Part shown: piece by piece, positions 5,086 through 63,785 of the stretch
Layout: every line of letters begins with the position of its first letter
Numbering within the stretch: position 1 is the first letter of the stretch
Assembly: GCA_038913135.1 (NCBI GenBank)
Contig: JBCLES010000005.1
Coordinates: forward strand, 12,216 to 76,215
DNA from: Anaerolineae bacterium
GTDB lineage: Bacteria > Chloroflexota > Anaerolineae > Epilineales > Epilineaceae
Reading direction: 5' to 3'
Length of the DNA: 64,000 nt
The notes under the pieces: generated by a model
Told to the model about the DNA's origin: nothing
The model's database searches: none
Seen by the model: only the letters and a program-made list of their open reading frames with translations
Translations under genes and position numbers: made by a program

Positions 5086-5598
5086 GTGCCGTTGACACAC
5101 ATCGACGCCGAAGGCAAGGCGTCGATGGTCGACATCGGAGATAAGCCGATCAGCGCACGCTCAGCGGTGGCTCGCGGGAAAATCCGGATGTTGCCCGCGA
5201 CAGTGGCCGCCATTACCTCGGGGACGGCTCCGAAGGGCGATGTTCTCGCGGCGGCCCGCCTGGCCGGAATTCAAGCCGCCAAATCGACTTCCGATTTGAT
5301 CCCACTGTGCCACATAGTGCCGCTCGACTCGGTGCGCGTCGACATTGAACATACATCGAACGACGGCTTCCTAGTCGTTGCCCGAGTGACGTGCACAGGC
5401 AGGACCGGAGTCGAGATGGAGGCCTTGACGGCCGTTTCCGTAGCGCTTCTCACGCTATACGACATGGCCAAGTCGATGGACGAGTCGATGGTTATCGAGC
5501 GAATCGAGCTTGTCGAGAAAGTGGGGGGTGTCCGCGGTGATTGGCGGCGAGACGACTTGGGCGGCGACTCATCGGATGTGAGCAGCCCGAATGGCTGA
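5086..5598 (+). CDS. moaC: cyclic pyranopterin monophosphate synthase MoaC
   Basis: [66 protein letters not shown]. Full-length MoaC pattern; GTG start. Confidence 0.9.
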
Positions 5599-6682
5599 GC
5601 TGAGCTTTCAAACGCGGGATGGTCTGACCGTTCCTGCGGAGATCTCGACTTGGCGGAGTTCTGCCGGAGAGACGCTCGAGTGCACTTCGCTTCCATTCGA
5701 CCCTGACTCGATCGAGAGTTCGGAGCGGTCGATTTGGCGATATCGAGCCATGCTTCCGGTTCCAGACAACGTAGCGCCGGTCACATTGGGCGAAGGGTGG
5801 ACGCCACTCGTCGAGGCGTCGCTGGTCGGCATTCCGATCAAGGCAAAGCTGGAGTTCGTCCAACCGACCGCATCTTATAAGGATCGCGGCTCCGCCCTGC
5901 TCGCGGCGATGCTCCAGCATTCCGGTGTGAAGAATGCCGTCGAGGACAGTTCAGGCAACGCCGCGGCAAGCCTTGCGGCATATGCTTCGCGAATAAATAT
6001 GCCGATCAAGCTCTTTGTTCCCGGCGAAACGGCCGGCGGTGTAAGGGTTCGCCAGGCGATCGCATACGGCGCGGAGGTCGATGCCGCGGCCACGACGCGC
6101 AGTGAAGCCGCGGCGCGAGCGCAGGCGGCGATCTCAGGCTCGACCGCCTACGCGAGTCATGTCTACAGCCCGTACTTTCTCGCGGGCCAGATGACTCTGG
6201 CTTGGGAGATTTGGGAGGACTGCGGCGTGCCGAACAGTATTATTGTTCCCGTGGGACACGGCATTCTTCTTTTGGGCCTGCACCGCGGCTTCAAGGCTCT
6301 GCTAGCGGCCGGCTTGATCGATACCATGCCACGGCTTTTCGGCGTTCAGTCCAGAGACTGCGGTCCGATCTACCATGCTTACATGCGCGGTGCGAAGAAG
6401 ACCTTTCCCTCTGTGTCGGGCAATTCCATCGCCACAAGCATCTCAGTCGACGATCCTCCTCGTGGCCGCGACGTTCTTGCGGCCGTGCGCGAGACGGGCG
6501 GTACGATGATCAGTGTCAACGATTCGGAGATCCGCAGGGGAATGTCGCTGGTGGCCAATCTCGGGTGGTACGTCGAGCCGGCGTCCGCAGCTGCGGTTGC
6601 GGGAGTCGTCAAGCTGGACAAGCTGCTTCCGGTCGACGGTACGGTGGTCGTTCCGCTGACGGGGAGCGGTCTCAAGCTATAA
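5591..6682 (+). CDS. threonine synthase-like PLP-dependent enzyme (Trp-synthase beta fold)
   Basis: [31 protein letters not shown] (PLP Lys)..DSSGNAA motifs. Overlaps the moaC stop by 8 nt. Confidence 0.65.
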
Positions 6683-6762
6683 GGGACGCCCAACCACTTG
6701 AAGTCCAGTGCGAATCAAAACGATCGGCGAGCCTTCTTCGACAGCGGGGCTAGGAGCGAGCG

Positions 6763-7821
6763 GTGATCCGGAGCAAAGTCGGCAAGACATCACAGGAGAT
6801 CCGTCTCACTCAGATGGCGGCCTGTGCAGGGTGAGCATCCAAGATGGGCCCTGAGGCCTTGGCGCACGTGATGCGCCCATTATTGGACCTGTTTCCCCTA
6901 CAAGATTATCCCGATCTTCTTCTCGGGATCGAAGGCGCCGATGACGCTGCAGTCTGGCGAATTTCGGACGACTTGGCGTTGGTGGTGACAACGGATTTCT
7001 TCACCCCGATCGTCGACGACCCATATGACTTCGGTGCTATAGGCGCGGCCAACGCAATGAGTGACGTCTTCGCCATGGGCGGGCAGGTCATACTCGCTCT
7101 GAACCTTCTGGCGCTGCCTGAGAATCTTGATCCTGAAGTTGGCGCGAGAATTGTGCTCGGCGGCGCCGAGACTGTTCGAAGTGCGGGCGGTGTGGTTGCC
7201 GGGGGGCACAGTGTGAACGATCCGGAGCCGAAATATGGCCTGGCCGTAGTCGGCCGCGTTCATCCGGATCGGATTCTCAGAAAGTCAGGCGCACGTATCG
7301 GCGACCGGCTGGTTCTGACTAAGCCGCTCGGCACCGGCCTCATCTCGACCGCACTTAAGCGCGATCTTGCGGATCCCTCTGACGTCAGCGCGGCAATCGC
7401 CTCGATGCGCGCCTTGAACGCCGAAGCCGGTCGCTTGGCCGTCGAGCACGGCGCTTCGGCTGCCACCGACATAACGGGCTTTGGGCTGATAGGCCACGCG
7501 CTAGAGATCGCCGGCCGGAGCGAGATGCGACTGTGCTTCGACATCGATAGCATTCCGCTTCTCGCCGGAGCGCTCACAGCGGCTCTGGCGGACTGCGCGC
7601 CGGGGGGGACCGCCCGCAATCGTGAGGCATACTCGGCCGAGGTAACTGGACTCGACCTGCTTGCCGACGGATGGTCCGACGTGCTATTCGACCCCCAGAC
7701 ATCGGGCGGACTCCTGATCGCTCTTCCACCGGCGAAGGTCGACGGATTCCTCGACGACTTCGGCGGCGAAGCTACGTTGATCGGAGAGGTCGCAGCCGGC
7801 TCGGGCATCGAGCTCCGATGA
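6763..7821 (+). CDS. selD: selenide, water dikinase SelD (selenophosphate synthetase), predicted selenocysteine at UGA 6832-6834
   Basis: Track ORF 6844..7821 is clearly SelD (DDAAV..TTDFFTPIVDDPYDFG..NAMSDVFAMGG..GGHSVND..LTKPLGTG). The same frame is open upstream to TAG 6751-6753. GTG 6763 follows AGGAG (6752-6756). The extension reads MIRSKVGKTSQEIRLTQMAACAG-U-ASKMGPEAL, matching E. coli [21 protein letters not shown] with U at the Cys17 position and K at Lys20. Confidence 0.8.
6846..6877 (+). promoter_or_regulatory. candidate bacterial SECIS region (two small hairpins downstream of the selD UGA)
   Basis: Hairpin 1 at 6846-6859: GGGCC/loop CUGA/GGCCU, starting 12 nt after the UGA. Hairpin 2 at 6861-6877: GGCGCA/loop CGUGA/UGCGCC, starting 27 nt after. 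Both lie in the distance range expected for SelB-binding stem-loops. Which one is functional, if either, is unknown. Confidence 0.4.
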
Positions 7822-7836
7822 TCAAGCGCGCAGAGG

Positions 7837-8655
7837 ATGGGTGAGCACATGACGGACGTGCCCGCCGATCGCTCCCTTGACTCCGGCGAGGCGCTCCAGC
7901 CGATCGAAGCGCTGGAAGATCGTCTCGATATCCATTTCTCCGATCGTGCGTTGATCCAGTGCGCCCTAACGCATCGCTCTTACCTCAACGAAGTGAGCGA
8001 CCCTTCCGTCGAAGACAACGAACGTCTCGAGTATCTCGGAGACGCCCTTCTCGGCTTTGCGGTCGCCGCGGACCTATACGCTTCCATGCCGGATGCGCCG
8101 GAGGGCGAGCTGACGGCGCTACGTTCCGCGCTGGTGCGCGCCTCGGCGCTGGCGGACTACGCTCGCGAGCTGCAGCTCGGCGAGCATCTGCGCATGGGCC
8201 GGGGCGAGGCCACCAGCGGGGGACGAGAACGCGACGGACTGCTCTGCGACGCATTCGAGGCCGTTCTCGGCGCGATTCTTGTCGAGCACGGAACCGAGGT
8301 CGCTAGGCGGCTGGCGCTGGACTTTGTCCGCCCGGAACTTGAGGACGTGATCGCCAAGCGTCGCGCTAAGGACGCCAAGAGCGCGCTGCAGGAGCACACG
8401 CAAGGACGGTGGCATCTCACGCCGATCTACGAGACCGTCGAAGAGTCCGGTCCGGATCATGACAAACGTTTCGTGGTCAGGGTCCTCGTCGGTGAGGAAG
8501 AGTTTGGGACTGGGCGCGGAGCTTCCAAGTCGGAAGCGGCTCGCTCGGCCGCACGGATTGCGCTGAACTCGATCTCCGAGCGCGAAGTACGGGATACCGC
8601 TAGAGGTTCAACGCGAGCGCCAGGCGACGTCGACCGAACTTTGGAGGAGCATTGA
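7837..8655 (+). CDS. rnc: ribonuclease III
   Basis: ALTHRSY..NERLEYLGDALLG signature, DAFEAVLGAI, and a C-terminal dsRBD (GPDHDKRFVVRV..G.GRGASKSEAARSAA). Confidence 0.93.
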   Translation: MGEHMTDVPADRSLDSGEALQPIEALEDRLDIHFSDRALIQCALTHRSYLNEVSDPSVEDNERLEYLGDALLGFAVAADLYASMPDAPEGELTALRSALVRASALADYARELQLGEHLRMGRGEATSGGRERDGLLCDAFEAVLGAILVEHGTEVARRLALDFVRPELEDVIAKRRAKDAKSALQEHTQGRWHLTPIYETVEESGPDHDKRFVVRVLVGEEEFGTGRGASKSEAARSAARIALNSISEREVRDTARGSTRAPGDVDRTLEEH

Positions 8656-9244: not shown

Positions 9245-10213
9245 ATGGTTTCATCAGACACCGCAGTCGCATTGGACACTGCAATTAATTTGAACACTGT
9301 GTCGGGGAATCGGGGCGTCGTCCTCGTCTTCGTCGATGGAGTCGGTGTCGGCGAGGACGACGGCTACACCAATCCTCTAGCCGCGCTCGACATTCCAGCG
9401 ATAGATCTCATCTGCGGTGGCCGTCCGGTCTACGGCGCGACGGGGTCTGCCGCCGGGATCGATGCACTGCTCGGTGTCGCCGGGCTGCCGCAGAGCGGGA
9501 CAGGTCAAACCGCCCTGCTGACCGGCGTGAACGCTTCGGCAGCCATCGGAAGGCATTTCGGCCCGTACGCCAATGCCGAGTTGCGCGACATCCTTGAACA
9601 AGGTTCACTTTGGCTGCGCGTGCTCGCCAGTGGTGGACGAGCGGTATTCGCGAACGCTTACCCCAGCCGGATGGTCGCGGAGGCGGCAGCCGGCGGCGGG
9701 CGGCTGGGAGCGTTCGCACGCTCGGCGGCGCTCGCGGGTGTCAAGCTCCGCGGCCCGGATGACCTCACGGCGGGCAATGCTATCGCGGCCGACATTGTTG
9801 GCGGATGGTGGAAAGGACGCGGCGGCTTGCCCAGCAGAGCGGAAGATGATCCGATTGCCGTCGGCGAACGCTTAGCGGAAATGGCGCATCGGAGCACCCT
9901 GACCGTTTTCGAGTGCTTTCTAACAGACGTGGCCGGGCACCGGATGGATCGGGCGCTGGCTGATCGGATGCTGGTCCGGATCGACCGCATGCTCGCCGGC
10001 CTTTTGTCGGCTCTCGACAGTGACTATTCGATCGTGCTAGTCAGCGACCATGGGAACGTCGAGGACATGAGCCACGCAAGGCACACCGCAAACCCTGCGA
10101 TCTTCGGCTGGCACGGTCCGGGTCCAGGTCAAGACCGACCCATTCGCTCTCTGACGGACGTGGCGCCTGGGATCCTCGAACAGCTCTTCGGTTCGGGCTA
10201 CAAAAACTCCTAG
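9245..10213 (+). CDS. alkaline-phosphatase-superfamily metalloenzyme (phosphopentomutase / cofactor-independent PGM-like)
   Basis: LPQSGTGQTALLTG and VLVSDHGN metal-site-like motifs. Start set at ATG 9245 (MVSSDT), because the longer track ORF from 9056 overlaps the flavin reductase gene. Confidence 0.5.
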   Translation: MVSSDTAVALDTAINLNTVSGNRGVVLVFVDGVGVGEDDGYTNPLAALDIPAIDLICGGRPVYGATGSAAGIDALLGVAGLPQSGTGQTALLTGVNASAAIGRHFGPYANAELRDILEQGSLWLRVLASGGRAVFANAYPSRMVAEAAAGGGRLGAFARSAALAGVKLRGPDDLTAGNAIAADIVGGWWKGRGGLPSRAEDDPIAVGERLAEMAHRSTLTVFECFLTDVAGHRMDRALADRMLVRIDRMLAGLLSALDSDYSIVLVSDHGNVEDMSHARHTANPAIFGWHGPGPGQDRPIRSLTDVAPGILEQLFGSGYKNS

Positions 10214-24959: not shown

Positions 24960-25314
24960 ATGGAGCGACGGACGAGTCTGCCGGAGAGAAAATGACGGTT
25001 ACGGCGCCGGGCAACCGACCGAGTGCTGGCTAATCTCATACGGTGGGCAGTTTACCGGCGCGCCGTTCTTTGACATATATTGCACGGATTGCGACTCATG
25101 AGGAGCGCTGGCGGGTGACATCTTGATGCGCAGAAGCGAACGCCTGACTCAACATGCGGTGCGCGCCACGCCTTACAGAGCGCAACGGCGCACTCATGCA
25201 GGACGAGGCGGGCACGGCTCCTCGCCGCTTCAAGTCGCTTTATCGGGGGCCAAAATGAAATTTAGGGATGGTCGGGAGCAGCGCAGCCTCTCCAGCCGCC
25301 GGAGCAGCACCGCA

Positions 25315-46244: not shown

Positions 46245-47527
46245 GGGCTTCCGACCGACCCGACGCCGAACACCTCGCTGACCGTTATCCACAATACAAG
46301 TCCGATCACGACAACGATGCCTACGATATGAACAAGCTCCTCGCGTCGCGGTTCAAGCCGCCGGCCTCGAAGGGCTTCCATGGCGATGAAGACAAGGCGA
46401 CCGCCGTCGAGGCCGGGAATGGGCAGCAGGTTGAAGATGGCAAGGTTGATCGAGAGCATAACCATGAAGCCGAGCAGCGGCGCAGTGCCCGCCTCGCCGG
46501 CTTCGCGTCCCAGGCGCGCGATGCCGACCGGACCAGCGAGATCCGCTTCGAGCGACCCAGTTATCATCTGTCCCAGCCCGTCGATTATCAGCCCCGTGAG
46601 CTCGATAGAGCGGCCGGCGCCGTAAGCTAGCGCAGCGAAAGGACCAAGTTTCTCCTGGAAGCCGAGCGAATCGATATAGACGCCGATCGTGCCGTCATCC
46701 GGAGTCACTTCGACCTCGATAACCTCGACTGCAGCGCCGGCTTCGGACCGCAGAACGATCGCCTGCTCGCCTGCTTGGGGTCCAACTTCTGAGTCGACGA
46801 CGAGGTCGCCGGTTCTCAAAGCGTTCTCGCTACCGGCAACTTGAACGCTGCTTACCTGCCAGGCATCGAAGCCACCGAGTGACGTCGGCTGAGTCTCGAA
46901 TTGGTCCGGCACATCGACATACAGTGTCGAATCGAGACCGCGAATCAACGTGAGCTGCAACGCCGATGCACCAGCCCCCTGTGCCGCGTCCATCAAGGCC
47001 TTCATCGCGGGCGTCGCGCGCGAGTCTTCTTCGACAGGTATGGCCGCGAGCGGCTGGCCATCTATGGCTACGAGGATATCGCCTTCGAGGACTCCGGCCA
47101 TCGCCGCCGGCTGATCCTCGATGATCCCTGCGATCCTGACGGTCTCATCGGACGCGACCTCGATCGGGGAGCCGTACACCCAACCCAGGCCGGCGAGGAG
47201 AATGGCGGCGAACAAGATGTTCGCGATCGGTCCCGCCAACAGCACTATGGCCCGCCCGCCGGCACTTGCGGATAGAAATCCGCCCTCTAGATCGGCATCG
47301 TCCATCCCGGGCAACTTAACGAAGCCGCCTAGGGGCAACCAATTGAGCGTGTACTCCGTCTCACCGATGGTGAAGAGCCGGGCCATCCGGGGAGGAAAAC
47401 CAATCCCGAATTCTTCAACTCGAATGCCGTTGAGCTTGGCCAGGACGAAGTGGCCGAATTCGTGTACGAGGACTAGCGGGAACAGTGAGACAAAGAAATA
47501 GAGCGCTGTGATCAGAGCGTCGGGCAT
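46241..47527 (-). CDS. rseP: RIP metalloprotease RseP (site-2 protease, M50)
   Basis: LVLVHEFGHFVLAKLNGI (HExxH), PDZ region, NLAIFNLLPIPGLDGG. Start set at MPDALITALYFF (47527). Confidence 0.9.
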   Translation of the reverse strand: MPDALITALYFFVSLFPLVLVHEFGHFVLAKLNGIRVEEFGIGFPPRMARLFTIGETEYTLNWLPLGGFVKLPGMDDADLEGGFLSASAGGRAIVLLAGPIANILFAAILLAGLGWVYGSPIEVASDETVRIAGIIEDQPAAMAGVLEGDILVAIDGQPLAAIPVEEDSRATPAMKALMDAAQGAGASALQLTLIRGLDSTLYVDVPDQFETQPTSLGGFDAWQVSSVQVAGSENALRTGDLVVDSEVGPQAGEQAIVLRSEAGAAVEVIEVEVTPDDGTIGVYIDSLGFQEKLGPFAALAYGAGRSIELTGLIIDGLGQMITGSLEADLAGPVGIARLGREAGEAGTAPLLGFMVMLSINLAIFNLLPIPGLDGGRLVFIAMEALRGRRLEPRREELVHIVGIVVVIGLVLWITVSEVFGVGSVGSP

Positions 47528-47651
47528 AAGTTCAGGAGTCCTCGAGCACGTCAGGGCGCTGCCGGTCGAATCGAGCAATGATACCAGCCCCGCCGCGACC
47601 GAGAAAAGACGCGCATGCTATACTTTTCGCCCTCACCCACAGGTGACCACG

Positions 47652-48767
47652 ATGACGGATGAACTACCGCGCGAGCGGCTCGAACGTGCAGAGGCGCGTT
47701 ACGAGGAATTGATTACGTCGCTCGGCACACCTGAGGTGGCGAGCGACTCAGACCGTTTGCGCGAGATCGGACAGGAGCAGGCGACGCTAGAGCCGCTCGT
47801 CGAGCGGTGGCGCTCGTTTCGTTCTCTGGAGCAGGAGCTAGCTGAGTCTAGACAGCTCCTTGGAGATGCGGTCGACTATGACATGCGCTCGCTGGTGGAA
47901 GCTGAGATTGAAGCGCTCGAGCCGCGCCTTCTTGAACTTAGCGAGGAAATCGCCGAGCGCCTGATCCCAACCGATCCCAACGACGCTCGTGATGTGATCG
48001 TAGAGATCCGCGCCGGCGCAGGCGGCGACGAGGCCGCTCTCTTCGCGTCCGATCTTCACAGGATGTACATCCGATATGCCGAAAACACAGGTTGGAAGGT
48101 AGAGACTCTCAGCTCCAGCCCGATCGGCATCGGCGGCATGAAGGAGATCATCTTCTCGGTGCAAGGGCGCGGTGCCTACTCCAAGCTCAAATGGGAGAGC
48201 GGTGTCCACCGTGTGCAGCGGGTTCCACAGACGGAGACTTCAGGCCGGATTCACACTTCTACGGCTACGGTCGCAGTCTTGCCGGAGGTGGACGAGGTGG
48301 AGGTCAATGTGCCTGAGTCGGACATCCGAATCGATGTCTTCCGTTCGTCGGGCCCAGGCGGTCAATCGGTCAACACAACGGATTCGGCCGTGCGCTTGAC
48401 CCATCTCCCGTCTGGAATAGTAATCAGTTGCCAGGACGAGAAGTCTCAGCTCCAGAATCGTCGTAAGGCAATGCAGGTGCTGCGCGCCAAGCTTCATCAA
48501 GTCGAAACCGATCGTCAGAACGCGCAGCGGGGCGATGTCCGCCGGGGCATGGTCGGTTCGGGCGATCGCTCCGAGAAGATCAGGACATACAACTTCTCGC
48601 AGAGCAGAATCACGGATCATCGTATCGGATTCTCGACATATCGCTTACCCGAGGTGTTGGCTGGGGACATTGCCGAACTCATCGGTGAGTTATCGCTGGC
48701 GGAGCGGGCGGAGCGTCTCGCGCAGGCGCGCGAAGGCGCCGTCGAAACCGTGCCGGCCCAGGGCTAA
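47652..48767 (+). CDS. prfA: peptide chain release factor 1
   Basis: RVQRVPQTETSGRIHTS (PxT tripeptide region) and SSGPGGQSVNTTDSAVRLTH (GGQ). Start ATG 47652 (MTDELPRERL). Confidence 0.93.
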   Translation: MTDELPRERLERAEARYEELITSLGTPEVASDSDRLREIGQEQATLEPLVERWRSFRSLEQELAESRQLLGDAVDYDMRSLVEAEIEALEPRLLELSEEIAERLIPTDPNDARDVIVEIRAGAGGDEAALFASDLHRMYIRYAENTGWKVETLSSSPIGIGGMKEIIFSVQGRGAYSKLKWESGVHRVQRVPQTETSGRIHTSTATVAVLPEVDEVEVNVPESDIRIDVFRSSGPGGQSVNTTDSAVRLTHLPSGIVISCQDEKSQLQNRRKAMQVLRAKLHQVETDRQNAQRGDVRRGMVGSGDRSEKIRTYNFSQSRITDHRIGFSTYRLPEVLAGDIAELIGELSLAERAERLAQAREGAVETVPAQG

Positions 48768-48830
48768 GGTCGGGCGATAAACCCGGAAAGGCATGCGAGC
48801 ACGGCCGTTTCCGGCGACGGTGAACTAACC

Positions 48831-49715
48831 GTGGCATCCGTCGTGCGTCGAGTGCGAACACAGCTATCGCGCGACGGTGCCGATTACGGTGCTGATACCG
48901 GCGAACGGATGGCCGAATGGATCGTCGGACACGTTCTCGAAATCGAACACAGCGACTTGATCGTCCGCGCCAACGAGCTGTTCCCGCCCGAAGCTTCTGC
49001 CCAACTCGAATCTCTCGTCGCACGATTGATTGAAGGCGAACCATTCGCTTACGTCGTGGGCCAGACCGACTTCCTTGATCTTACCCTCATGGTTGGGCCT
49101 GGCGCCCTCATCCCCAGGCCGGAGACGGAAGGGCTGGCGGAATGGGCTATCGGGCGGACACCATCCGTTGGCCAGCCGCGTGTCCTCGACGTAGGGACAG
49201 GCGTTGGCCCCCTTGCGCTCTCGATCGCGCGCGCGCGACCCAACGCGATCGTGCATGCGACCGATCGATCACGGATCGCGCTCGATTTAGCGGTTTCGAA
49301 CGCAGAACGGCTCGGACTGACCCGGTCGATAGCCTGGCACCATACCGATCTCTTGCCTGAAGGGCACGAACTGTATGACGTGGTAGTGGCCAACCTTCCC
49401 TACGTGGGATTCGATGAAATCGCGCTCGTCGCGCCCGAGGTGCTGCTACACGAGCCCCATGAGGCGTTGTTCGCCGGTCCGGATGGCCTTGCATTAATCG
49501 AGCGCCTGCTCAACCGTCTACCCGATCGGATCGCCGCCGAAGCGGCAGTCGGACTGGAGATCGGCTGGCGCCAAGGACCGTCCGTGGTAAAGCTGGCGAG
49601 GGCGGCCTTCCCGTCAGCGCGCGTTCAATTGCGCGCCGATCTTGCAGGACGAGTCCGCTACGTTCTCATAGACATCGACCCAAAGGGCGCTTTTGACGAC
49701 GCCCCGGCCAGATGA
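48831..49715 (+). CDS. prmC: release factor glutamine methyltransferase PrmC/HemK
   Basis: VLDVGTGVGPLAL (SAM site) and VVANLPYV (NPPY-type motif). Located immediately after prfA. Confidence 0.85.
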   Translation: MASVVRRVRTQLSRDGADYGADTGERMAEWIVGHVLEIEHSDLIVRANELFPPEASAQLESLVARLIEGEPFAYVVGQTDFLDLTLMVGPGALIPRPETEGLAEWAIGRTPSVGQPRVLDVGTGVGPLALSIARARPNAIVHATDRSRIALDLAVSNAERLGLTRSIAWHHTDLLPEGHELYDVVVANLPYVGFDEIALVAPEVLLHEPHEALFAGPDGLALIERLLNRLPDRIAAEAAVGLEIGWRQGPSVVKLARAAFPSARVQLRADLAGRVRYVLIDIDPKGAFDDAPAR

Positions 49716-60967: not shown

Positions 60968-61041
60968 GGTAGCGGGGGCAGGACTCGAACCTGCGACCTT
61001 CGGGTTATGAGCCCGACGAGCTGCCTCTGCTCCACCCCGCA
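60968..61041 (-). tRNA. tRNA-fMet (CAT), initiator
   Basis: Minus strand UGCGGGG-UG-GAGC..; anticodon loop CUCAUAA. Three G:C pairs (GGG/CCC) close the anticodon stem and positions 1:72 are unpaired (U.U). T-loop UUCGAGU. The 3' end reads ACC then U. Confidence 0.88.
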
Positions 61042-61101
61042 TCGAGGAACGGGAAGTATACGGGCCGCTAAGGGTTGGTCAAGCTCAGGCAACACGCAGC
61101 C

Positions 61102-61623
61102 TCACGCCATTTTTCGGGAAGCGTTCGGCTCGATGTACTTGCGCCAGCGCTCGTCGCCTTCGCTGATCGCGACGAAGGCCACGGCGACATAACGGGGCGG
61201 GCAAGGGGTTGAGCGGAGCTGCATCCCGGCTTGTGCCGGCGTCCGTCCGCCCTTCCTAAGATTGCAGCGCAGGCAAGCCGCGACGAGATTTTGCCACGTT
61301 CGCCGTCCGCCGTGTGAGCGCGGCACAACATGGTCGATAGTGAGCTCGTTTCGGGCGGTTGACGCTCCGCAATACTGGCAAGCGTAACCGTCCCGAGCGA
61401 GGATCCCGCGACGCGTGACCGGGAATGGGAATCGATACGGCACGCGCACATAGGCCACTAGTCGGATGACAGTCGGACGCGGCAACGAAAGGGATTCGGA
61501 GCTTATCCGACCCTCGCGCGCTTCGATCAGCTGCGCTTTGTCCTTTATCAGCAACACGATCGCACGCCGTTCAGAAACGACGTTCAACGGCGCGAATGAG
61601 GCGTTGAGGACCAGAACCGACAT
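61102..61623 (-). CDS. HNH endonuclease (COG1403-type, widely conserved small form)
   Basis: VLVLNASFAPLNVV... N-terminal domain, then CQYCG....LTIDHVVPRSHGG..TWQNLVAACLRCNLRKG, the HNH/zinc-ribbon motif. Confidence 0.88.
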   Translation of the reverse strand: MSVLVLNASFAPLNVVSERRAIVLLIKDKAQLIEAREGRISSESLSLPRPTVIRLVAYVRVPYRFPFPVTRRGILARDGYACQYCGASTARNELTIDHVVPRSHGGRRTWQNLVAACLRCNLRKGGRTPAQAGMQLRSTPCPPRYVAVAFVAISEGDERWRKYIEPNASRKMA

Positions 61624-61730
61624 CGCTCACGGTCTCCACGATGTAGATAACGCCCTTACGTCCCAAGGGCGTGTACTTCGATGATGACGCGCGAAAGTAT
61701 AGCGTTCTGATCGGGCCGTACAACGAACAA

Positions 61731-61759
61731 CGCCGCCACCAGAAATGCTGGCGGCGGCG
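61731..61759 (-). terminator. hairpin downstream of the last array tRNA (candidate terminator of the tRNA array)
   Basis: 12-bp stem with one A.C mismatch (61731-61742 pairs with 61748-61759), 5-nt loop. On the minus strand it is followed by TTGTTCGTTG. Lies 35 nt past the tRNA-Leu 3' end. Confidence 0.4.
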
Positions 61760-61793
61760 GTCGACTGAGGTGCTCAAAGTAACCGGTGCAGAA

Positions 61794-61880
61794 TGGTGCC
61801 GAGGGTGGGACTCGAACCCACACGGGTATAACCCCACGCGAGTTTGAGTCGCGCGCGTCTGCCAGTTCCGCCACCTCGGC
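61794..61880 (-). tRNA. tRNA-Leu (CAA)
   Basis: GCCGAGG acceptor, anticodon stem CGCGA/UCGCG, loop CUCAAAC, long variable arm (class II), T-loop UUCGAGU. CCA is encoded. Confidence 0.92.
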
Positions 61881-61927
61881 CGATTGTGAATGGCGATCGG
61901 CGCCGCAAGTCCTGCGGCATCGACGTA

Positions 61928-61999
61928 AGCCCACGGGCGGGATTGAACCGCCGACCTCGTTCTTACCAAGAACGCGCTCTACCACTGAGCTACGTGGGC
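61928..61999 (-). tRNA. tRNA-Thr (GGT)
   Basis: GCCCACG-UA-GCUC-AGUGGUA-GAGC; anticodon stem CGUUC/GAACG, loop UUGGUAA; T-loop UUCAAUC. CCA not encoded. Confidence 0.9.
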
Positions 62000-62036
62000 A
62001 GTGCGGTGCTGCCGGATACTCAAAACGGCACCACCA

Positions 62037-62114
<78 letters not shown>

Positions 62115-62157
62115 AAACGCATACGTGACACCCCCCTTGCAGACGTTGGTGTCACAG

Positions 62158-62231
<74 letters not shown>

Positions 62232-62372
62232 TCGAATCTTCGAACACTAAACCGAATAAAGTGGACAAGAGCGAACACAGACTCCGGCTGAGTTTCCAGC
62301 CGAATGGGCACTGGACTTCGACGAGCGTTCCGAATACCGAACTATCTGATGCCAACCGCCGGTCCATCTTAA

Positions 62373-62449
<77 letters not shown>

Positions 62450-62571
62450 TTTTTCCGCTCCGCCTGCATGTAGCTGTGTCGTTCTCAAGCTGTGCCGTAG
62501 TTTAGCCGTGTTGTGTTGTCGTGCCATGAAACTGTGCCGCAAAGATCAGATTGGCGTCGATCCTACGCTTC

Positions 62572-62645
<74 letters not shown>

Positions 62646-62683
62646 ATGCCGCTCTAGGATCCGGTCGCTGTCACGATCTCCGA

Positions 62684-62756
<73 letters not shown>

Positions 62757-62803
62757 GCTACTTCTGCATCACGCACCCTAGTCAAAACCGATGCGTCCGC
62801 GAG

Positions 62804-62877
62804 GGAGACCAACGGGGCTCGAACCCGCGACCTCCTGATCCACAATCAGGTGCTCTGCCAACTGAGCTATGATCTCC
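62804..62877 (-). tRNA. tRNA-His (GTG) with encoded G-1
   Basis: G(-1) precedes the GAGAUCA acceptor and faces C73; anticodon stem CCUGA/UCAGG, loop UUGUGGA; T-loop UUCGAGC. Confidence 0.9.
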
Positions 62878-62883
62878 GCGAAG

Positions 62884-62957
62884 TGGGCGATCCAGGATTT
62901 GAACCTGGGACCTCTCCCTTATCAGGGGAGTGCTCTAACCAACTGAGCTAATCGCCC
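62884..62957 (-). tRNA. tRNA-Ile (GAT)
   Basis: GGGCGAU acceptor; anticodon stem CUCCC/GGGAG, loop CUGAUAA; T-loop UUCAAAU. Lies only 6 nt from tRNA-His. Confidence 0.92.
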
Positions 62958-62968
62958 TAACGCCTAGG

Positions 62969-63041
62969 CTCCACCGACTGGACTCGAACCAGTAACCCTC
63001 CGGTTAACAGCCGGATGCTCTGCCAATTGAGCTACGGTGGA
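62969..63041 (-). tRNA. tRNA-Asn (GTT)
   Basis: UCCACCG acceptor; anticodon stem UCCGG/CCGGA, loop CUGUUAA; discriminator G73; T-loop UUCGAGU. Confidence 0.92.
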
Positions 63042-63084
63042 AGGTGCGTGGCCACGTCGTCTCTGGAACGTGTGGCCACACGAG

Positions 63085-63157
63085 TGCCGAGGCCCAGACT
63101 TGAACTGGGGACTCCCTGATTTTCAGTCAAGTGCTCTACCAACTGAGCTACCTCGGC
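63085..63157 (-). tRNA. tRNA-Phe (GAA)
   Basis: GCCGAGG acceptor; anticodon stem CUUGA/UCAGG, loop CUGAAAA; T-loop UUCAAGU. Confidence 0.92.
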
Positions 63158-63160
63158 CCA

Positions 63161-63231
63161 AGGCCACGGCCGGAATCGAACCGGCGATGAGGGTTTTGCA
63201 GACCCTTGCCTTGCCACTTGGCTACGTGGCC
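63161..63231 (-). tRNA. tRNA-Cys (GCA)
   Basis: GGCCACG acceptor, U73 discriminator, A13.A22-type D-stem; anticodon stem AGGGU/ACCCU, loop CUGCAAA. Lies 3 nt from tRNA-Phe. Confidence 0.92.
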
Positions 63232-63236
63232 GGGAG

Positions 63237-63324
63237 CGGAGAGGGAGGGATTCGAACCCTCGACGGGCTTGCGCCCGCAACGGCTTAGCAGGCCGCTCCA
63301 TTACCAGGCTATGGTAACCTCCCC
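63237..63324 (-). tRNA. tRNA-Ser (GCT)
   Basis: GGGGAGG acceptor (G3.U70), 3-bp D-stem; anticodon stem GCGGC/GCCGU, loop CUGCUAA; 18-nt variable arm (GCGGGC/GCCCGU); T-loop UUCGAAU. Lies 5 nt from tRNA-Cys. Confidence 0.88.
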
Positions 63325-63351
63325 ACGATCTTCTCTTGTTAAGGTCACTGA

Positions 63352-63425
63352 TGGCTGGGGGACAGGGACTCGAACCCCGACCTACTGATCCAGAGTCAGT
63401 TGTACTACCGTTATACTATCCCCCA
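63352..63425 (-). tRNA. tRNA-Gln (CTG)
   Basis: UGGGGGA acceptor (U1:A72), G73; anticodon stem ACUGA/UCAGU, loop CUCUGGA. CCA is encoded. Confidence 0.92.
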
Positions 63426-63456
63426 AAAAAATCGCGGCTAGCCGAAGGTTGGCCGC
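63426..63456 (-). terminator. canonical intrinsic terminator inside the tRNA array (between tRNA-Glu and tRNA-Gln)
   Basis: Minus strand: 10-bp stem (63456-63447 pairs with 63434-63443, two G.U pairs), UUC triloop, then GAU plus a U run (7 T, the last being tRNA-Gln nucleotide 1). Confidence 0.6.
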
Positions 63457-63459
63457 AAG

Positions 63460-63532
63460 TAGCCCCTACGGGATTCGAACCCGTGTCTCCGCCTTGAGAG
63501 GGCGGTATCCTAGGCCTCTAGACGAAGGGGCC
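63460..63532 (-). tRNA. tRNA-Glu (CTC)
   Basis: GGCCCCU-UC-GUCU-AGAGGCCUAGG..., very similar to the E. coli tRNA-Glu scaffold; anticodon stem CCGCC/GGCGG, loop CUCUCAA. Positions 1:72 read G.U. Confidence 0.9.
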
Positions 63533-63575
63533 AAGACCTGACGATCCAACATGTTGGCCCGCGCCAAGGCCGGAG

Positions 63576-63603
63576 ATTCTAATGCGCGACCCGAGAGTGT
63601 CAA
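63576..63603 (-). promoter_or_regulatory. near-consensus sigma-70-type promoter inside the array, upstream of tRNA-Glu
   Basis: Minus strand TTGACA (63603-63598), 16-nt spacer, TAGAAT (63581-63576). A 43-nt leader follows, containing the 12-bp palindrome CCAACATGTTGG, before tRNA-Glu +1. Confidence 0.6.
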
Positions 63604-63623
63604 AGCTGCCGGGTCGCGGCAGG

Positions 63624-63697
63624 TGGCGGCGGTTGGACTTGAACCAACGACCTAGCGATTATGAGCCGCTCGCTCTGACCACCTGAGCTACGCCGCC
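63624..63697 (-). tRNA. tRNA-Met (CAT), elongator type (tRNA-Ile2/lysidine not excluded)
   Basis: GGCGGCG acceptor fully paired; anticodon stem AGCGG/UCGCU, loop CUCAUAA. Lacks the initiator GGG/CCC feature. The 3' end reads ACC then U. Confidence 0.85.
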
Positions 63698-63713
63698 ATG
63701 TGAAGCAATCATA

Positions 63714-63785
63714 TACCCCCGGCAGGACTCGAACCTGCGCACCCGGCTCCGGAGGCCGGTGCTCTATCCTCTGAGCTACGGGGGC
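63714..63785 (-). tRNA. tRNA-Arg (CCG)
   Basis: GCCCCCG acceptor (1:72 reads G.U); anticodon stem CCGGC/GCCGG, loop CUCCGGA; T-loop UUCGAGU. First gene of the array. Confidence 0.9.

Follow-up and report, generated by a model that had tools for sequence, protein, structure and literature searches.

Catalysis by Escherichia coli selenophosphate synthetase (SelD) is known from established biochemistry to require a loop containing residue 17, cysteine or selenocysteine (Sec), and Lys20. Forms with Sec include those of Aquifex aeolicus (crystallised as Sec13Cys, PDB 2yye/2zod), Pasteurellales, many Clostridia and Deltaproteobacteria. In the recoding signal of E. coli fdhF, the minimal hairpin starts 11 nt past the UGA and has GU at +23/+24. 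Among bacterial selenoproteins, SelD ranks second in how widely it is distributed (PMC1794560, PMC4561486, PMC13188914). Sec is found in 19% of prokaryotic SelD genes, "always in the same position" (PMC4561486). Hence, the existence of bacterial SelD variants with Sec in place of Cys, asserted in a preliminary description of the locus studied here, agrees with the literature. For the hairpin itself, the bacterial SECIS (bSECIS) model specifies a loop of 3-9 nt, an upper stem of 4-16 bp and a minimum free energy of -7.5 kcal/mol or lower (PMC13188914). In the same model, one of the first two loop nucleotides is G, in most cases with G or U next to it on the 3' side, and the distance from UGA to loop is 16-37 nt (PMC13188914).

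Here, we describe a selD gene in a 64-kb stretch of DNA that was analysed as a whole (the window). Like Sec-containing bacterial SelD proteins, the product matches TIGR00476, has the AIRS and AIRS_C domains and carries a single Sec site in an N-terminal G-x-G-U/C-x-x-K loop. As in those genes, a SECIS hairpin, predicted here, lies within the coding sequence just past the UGA. There are also differences from other Sec-type SelD. They are details at the level of the lineage: the window's protein has a CxxU arrangement (Cys at -3) in place of UxC, and a further small hairpin separates the UGA from the GU-loop hairpin, which begins 26 nt past that codon. E. coli SelD (PDB 3u0o) shares Lys20 and the IRLTQ...GAG loop with the window's protein. 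However, the E. coli protein has Cys17 where the window has UGA, and so needs no SECIS. The predicted signal resembles the fdhF SECIS and the bSECISearch consensus in being a coding-sequence stem-loop past the UGA, with a small apical loop containing G then U. Unlike in fdhF, the GU lies at +37/+38, close to the upper limit of the 16-37 nt spacing that the model permits. The gene is an unannotated addition to the Sec-type SelD class. Since that class is already well documented, there is little new in the finding itself. We put the probability that residue 24 of the product, a 352-residue selenophosphate synthetase starting at GTG 6763, is selenocysteine at roughly 93%.

The selD reading frame

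The selD frame is open from a TAG at 6751-6753 to the stop at 7819-7821. Its sole break is a TGA at 6832-6834. The features discussed below are as follows.

6752-6756, plus strand: AGGAG, a Shine-Dalgarno-like sequence with a 6-nt spacer to GTG 6763; the GGAG core is invariant in the relatives L083 and L085
6763-7821, plus strand: full selD coding sequence, 352 codons and a TGA stop, with an internal UGA as predicted Sec24 codon (matches TIGR00476 and PDB 3u0o)
6763-6831, plus strand: the first 23 codons, which ORF callers overlook and in which the glycine-rich catalytic loop begins (IRLTQMAACAG)
6823-6825, plus strand: Cys21 codon TGT, at -3 relative to the predicted Sec (CxxU motif)
6832-6834, plus strand: UGA, predicted Sec24 codon, at the position of E. 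coli SelD Cys17 by alignment
6841-6843, plus strand: Lys27 codon AAG, matching E. coli SelD Lys20 in the alignment
6844-6846, plus strand: internal Met28 codon ATG, taken by ORF and gene callers as the start, in our reading wrongly, to give a 325-aa product
6846-6859, plus strand: hairpin 1, stem GGGCC/GGCCU and loop CUGA (6851-6854), starting 11 nt past the UGA; -7.0 kcal/mol
6861-6877, plus strand: hairpin 2, stem GGCGCA/UGCGCC and loop CGUGA (6867-6871, with G6868-U6869), the predicted SECIS apical hairpin; -9.0 kcal/mol

Read from the GTG, the extension translates as MIRSKVGKTSQEIRLTQMAACAG, followed by the UGA (read as *) and then ASKMGPEALAHV. The GTG start (6763-6765) is invariant in relatives. 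By contrast with the AGGAG ahead of this codon, inspection of the window sequence revealed no Shine-Dalgarno-like sequence ahead of ATG 6844. The preliminary description had placed the TAG, AGGAG, GTG, TGA and ATG codons and motifs at these coordinates, with the 6-nt spacer, and each position holds in the sequence. It had gone on to propose that selD is probably a selenoprotein gene with a UGA overlooked in the ORF track. Homology, the Sec/Cys pair, selection and the hairpin, described below, support that proposal. The window DNA is 63% GC, and at this composition an open upstream stretch of 27 codons is not significant by itself. Hence, the weight rests on homology.

Family membership and the catalytic loop

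Judged by family match, the gene product is a selenophosphate synthetase (selenide, water dikinase). The extended protein, with Cys standing in for the UGA, scores 357.7 bits against TIGR00476 selD (cut-off 125) and covers model positions 1-309 of 311. Against NF002098 the score is 332.8 bits and the cut-off 299. The ORF starting at ATG 6844 aligns with TIGR00476 over model positions 16-309 only, with 334.3 bits. The upstream extension therefore brings back model positions 1-15 and adds 23 bits. The earlier claim that the glycine-rich N-terminal loop is lost when the extension is left out is consistent with this, because the missing 15 positions include that loop. The domain pair AIRS and AIRS_C (PF00586, PF02769) is recorded for the public protein P0001, which is the window's SelD, and for relatives.

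The best match among solved structures is E. coli SelD (PDB 3u0o, E = 1e-70), with residues 11-348 aligned. Query residue 11 pairs with chain residue 4 of 3u0o. Hence, the UGA (residue 24) falls on Cys17 and K27 on Lys20, exactly the two correspondences that had been put forward for the TGA and the lysine following it. The Aquifex aeolicus SelD structure, a Sec-to-Cys mutant, aligns over the same SGC-AAK loop.

Cysteines flanking the predicted Sec follow a pattern across the family. A Cys at -3 is present in 29 of 105 distinct Sec-type SelD sequences, and none of these 29 also has Cys at +2. More broadly, Cys at -3 (CxxU/CxxC) and Cys at +2 (UxC/CxC) never occur together in 154 distinct SelD N-termini (L001-L165). 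Among the 154, 34 Sec-type sequences have Cys at neither position. The window's protein is of the CxxU type.

Sec and Cys codons across SelD loci

We examined the codon at the UGA position in about 160 SelD loci from several phyla, 80 taken from GTDB species genomes and 80 from metagenomes. None of the metagenome loci is above 56% identity, and they served solely to increase the numbers behind the Sec/Cys and hairpin comparisons. TGA stands at this position in 110 loci, and TGC or TGT in 50. TAA and TAG do not occur (0 loci). Forms with TGA come from Chloroflexota, Gemmatimonadota, Actinomycetota, Bacillota, Zixibacteria, Photobacterium and others. At the level of these aligned codons, a site that is either TGA or a Cys codon is the classical signature of a Sec/Cys pair.

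We also scanned the window blindly for ORFs interrupted by TGA. The scan returned 283 candidates, and essentially all are ordinary stops or GC-rich noise. One in-frame TGA (25099-25101) lies 8 codons 5' of a 475-aa ORF without Pfam match, in the context CTDCDS-U-GALAG. The frame around it is open for 50 codons upstream. This arrangement is probably due to chance in GC-rich DNA.

Conservation of the codons before the UGA

The window locus is identical in two NCBI metagenome assemblies, GCA_038913165.1 and GCA_038913205.1 (L081, L082). Loci L083/L084 and L085 encode SelD proteins with 78% and 76% identity to the window's, respectively, and keep the GTG, GGAG and TGA. Their upstream peptides are near-identical to that of the window. 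Loci L166-L168, at 63-68% SelD identity, also keep the extension and the TGA arrangement. In total, the TGA is kept in five lineage relatives spanning 63-78% SelD identity. The nearest named relatives of the protein are from Chloroflexota MAGs, at 49-54% identity.

Comparison of the window with L083 and L085 revealed 10-13 synonymous and 0-1 non-synonymous differences in the 23 upstream codons. For the rest of selD, the corresponding numbers are about 123-149 synonymous and 71-79 non-synonymous. The excess of synonymous changes before the UGA indicates that this stretch is translated in frame, and that it is more constrained than the remaining gene. By this measure, the 23 upstream codons are under strong purifying selection. 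The preliminary description had allowed that close homologues might all begin at the 6844 Met, with nothing conserved upstream. Instead, the 23 codons are conserved in close homologues.

These data bear on the possibility that ATG 6844 is the true start after all. The gene would then encode an N-terminally truncated SelD, and the upstream frame would be either a leader that is not translated or what is left of an N-terminus lost to pseudogenisation. Against this, the upstream codons are more strongly constrained than the rest of selD, and the same TGA recurs in 110 loci across phyla with TAA and TAG at 0. The shortened ORF does still score 334 bits on TIGR00476, and automatic gene callers do choose it (P0001, 325 aa). 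However, its product would be without model positions 1-15, which is to say without the glycine-rich loop bearing Cys/Sec17 and Lys20, and its start codon is the one without a Shine-Dalgarno-like sequence. We regard a start at ATG 6844 as very improbable and favour translation from GTG 6763 through the UGA.

Hairpins downstream of the UGA

The preliminary description had drawn attention to two small hairpins at the site where a SECIS element would be expected. Both exist, but they differ in how well they agree with the bSECIS model. Hairpin 2 (6861-6877) has a 6-bp stem and a UGA-to-loop distance of 32 nt, and fits all five published bSECIS constraints. Its z-score is -2.7, and 1 of 200 shuffled sequences folds equally well. 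The C and A around the GUG of its loop are unpaired, unlike the commonest pattern of the bSECIS model. Hairpin 1 (6846-6859) has no G in the first two loop positions and so fails the loop rule. Its energy as a 14-mer, -7.0 kcal/mol, also falls short of the model's limit, and reaches -7.5 kcal/mol, exactly the cut-off, when one flanking base is included on each side. Hairpin 1 is kept in six lineage members, and Sec-type genes have hairpins in its zone more often than Cys-type genes do. A reading of both hairpins as a terminator was rejected, as they are not terminator-like.

We compared the region downstream of the codon between Sec-type and Cys-type genes. At least 6 contiguous base pairs in the register of hairpin 2 are found in 43 of 104 distinct Sec-type sequences, versus 1 of 49 Cys-type sequences. 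The stem occurs in 27 distinct variants (for example GGCGCA/UGCGCC, GACGCA/UGCGUC, CGCACA/UGUGCG and CGCGCA/UGCGCG), with double-sided, compensatory changes among them. Pair 33-43, for instance, is GC in 45 cases, CG in 13 and AU in 6. A conserved Val codon always supplies the G-U at the centre of the loop in this register. The 17-nt hairpin sequence of the window recurs unchanged in L044 and L045, at only 49% protein identity. Folding energies of the 42 nt after the UGA differ in the same direction: -14.9 kcal/mol for Sec-type and -9.7 kcal/mol for Cys-type sequences at similar GC content (Mann-Whitney p = 6.5e-6). The shuffle z-scores for these 42 nt are -1.70 and -0.20, respectively (p about 1e-6). 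Phylogenetic relatedness among the sequences is a caveat to this comparison.

RNAalifold found no single consensus structure for the full set of 52 UGA-type sequences, because each lineage may place its hairpins in a different register. In Gemmatimonadota and Actinomycetota SelD, for example, hairpin 1 is extended instead. We therefore counted pairs for named registers in place of an RNAalifold consensus. For the two-hairpin structure, 66.5% of cells in the 52-sequence alignment are paired, versus 58.5% after shuffling (0 of 500 shuffles reach the observed value) and 29-46% when the partners are slid.

Conservation of hairpin 2 is not uniform within the lineage. In L083, the closest relative outside the window's own assemblies, a synonymous CGC-to-CGA change creates a G-A mismatch in the hairpin (10018-10034 of that locus). 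The hairpin is weakened as a result: the 17-mer folds at -3.6 kcal/mol, or at -6.0 kcal/mol in a 20-nt context, versus -9.0 kcal/mol in the window. Across the three closest sequences, 6 of 13 hairpin codons are identical versus 25% gene-wide, so that synonymous suppression is only mild and carries no weight in our argument. Separately, hairpin 1 of L083 has gained an extra G-C pair through a synonymous UUG-to-CUG change.

On the evidence of these alignments and folds, hairpin 2 is, within the window's lineage, most likely the SECIS to which SelB binds. Hairpin 1 would have an auxiliary role at best, and may be the lower part of the recoding signal. The UGA-specific signature, GRCGCA-(S)GUN(M)-UGCGYC at +30 to +46, could aid the annotation of Sec-type SelD in metagenomes.

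Decoding of the UGA

None of the window's 18 tRNA genes has a UCA anticodon (ARAGORN), and neither ARAGORN nor the Rfam tRNA-Sec family at gathering thresholds detected a tRNA-Sec in the 64 kb. Likewise, Pfam scans of 30 large ORFs in the window identified no selA or selB, and nine SelA/SelB proteins encoded at related loci, used as tblastn queries, had no match in the window at E <= 0.01. The preliminary description was therefore correct that selA, selB, selC and a tRNA with UCA anticodon are absent from this stretch. In lineage relatives, the 10-kb flanks of selD also contain no selA, selB or tRNA-Sec. With none of these genes in the window, the host's Sec-decoding trait has to be read from the gene itself: we infer from selD that selA, selB and selC lie elsewhere in the genome.

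The 18 tRNA genes are arranged head-to-tail over about 2.8 kb (60968-63785, minus strand), an array that is unusually dense for a high-GC genome. It includes two tRNA-Met(CAU) and two tRNA-Pro genes. The window also encodes a class-I release factor (PCRF and RF-1 domains) followed by prmC (47508-49715). Pairing with prmC suggests that this release factor gene is prfA (RF1). The window does not encode RF2, SelB's competitor at UGA codons.

Sec machinery that is out of sight within 64 kb would also suit a UGA decoded as some other amino acid, either through near-cognate read-through (Trp, Cys or Arg) aided by downstream structure, or through reassignment of the codon. Reassignment conflicts with the ordinary use of UGA as the stop codon of selD, moaC and rnc in this window, so UGA is not reassigned. 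Structure-stimulated, non-Sec read-through of UGA has a precedent in insect SPS1-UGA (PMC4561486), but here the UGA occupies the catalytic Cys/Sec site, where homologues carry only Cys codons. Moreover, UGA-type selD adjoins selA and selB in several other, related genomes, and the hairpin fits the SelB-type SECIS model. We give decoding without Sec very little credence and prefer Sec insertion at the UGA. An error in sequencing or assembly, whereby one changed base in a metagenome-assembled genome has turned the TGC or TGT of an ordinary Cys-type SelD into TGA, can practically be dismissed, as the TGA is identical in the separate assemblies GCA_038913165.1 and GCA_038913205.1, recurs in five relatives whose assemblies are independent and come from other samples, and is accompanied by the UGA-specific hairpin downstream. 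Together, the three alternatives (a start at ATG 6844, decoding without Sec and an erroneous base) account for the small share of probability left over by Sec24.

We infer Sec insertion and SelB binding at this selD by analogy, and the steps proposed are those of the established bacterial pathway (PMC13188914, PMC9312934, PMC1794560). During translation, SelB carrying Sec-tRNASec would bind hairpin 2 (6861-6877) through its GU apical loop, 32 nt past the UGA. The weaker hairpin 1 (6846-6859) may assist or form part of the lower stem. SelB would then deliver Sec to the UGA at 6832-6834, in place of termination by release factor 2. The predicted product would have Sec24 in the flexible, selenium-binding, glycine-rich N-terminal loop. 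This enzyme would supply selenophosphate to SelA, and possibly to other selenium traits. SelD would consequently be required for its own synthesis, a self-dependence known in organisms with Sec-type SelD.

Annotation of Sec-type SelD

The public protein for the window's SelD (P0001) is 325 aa long, and P0004 and P0021 are shortened likewise. In P0004 and P0021, the two database matches inspected, the sequence begins at the Met after the UGA. For about 90 of the best 120 database matches to the window's SelD, coverage of the full-length protein is limited to about 92%. Public gene calls thus appear to shorten Sec-type SelD at the N-terminus widely. In the public call for the window's SelD, and apparently in those for roughly three-quarters of the 120 relatives, the catalytic loop is lost and there is no selenoprotein flag. 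Hence, the practical value of the present reading is correction of the record. A UGA-type selD also implies a full Sec-decoding trait in the uncultured host, which is useful for metabolic reconstruction.

Genes around selD

In the window, the gene order is moaC, a thrC-like gene for a PLP enzyme, selD with its UGA and rnc (5086-8655); in some genomes a fabF-like gene lies between selD and rnc. The order from moaC to rnc is conserved in L166, L167 and L168, down to 63% SelD identity. The thrC-like gene is not beside selD in L001-L080, the more distant loci from GTDB genomes. Threonine synthases are the best structural relatives of its product, which falls below the NCBIfam thrC cut-offs.

A functional link between the thrC-like gene and selD was considered and set aside as lineage synteny, because the pairing is present in the window's own lineage and absent in L001-L080. 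A bolder reading is that SelD of this lineage has a two-part SECIS subclass and that the cluster of moaC, the thrC-like gene and UGA-type selD reflects function, not plain synteny. The two-part signal may comprise a small proximal hairpin at the E. coli-like distance of 11 nt and, 26 nt past the UGA, a distal hairpin with a GU loop. As for the cluster, selenophosphate supply could be tied to molybdenum-cofactor or PLP-dependent selenium chemistry. We consider this combined reading unlikely and offer it as speculation.

The moaC stop overlaps the start of the thrC-like gene (ATGGCTGA at 5591-5598).
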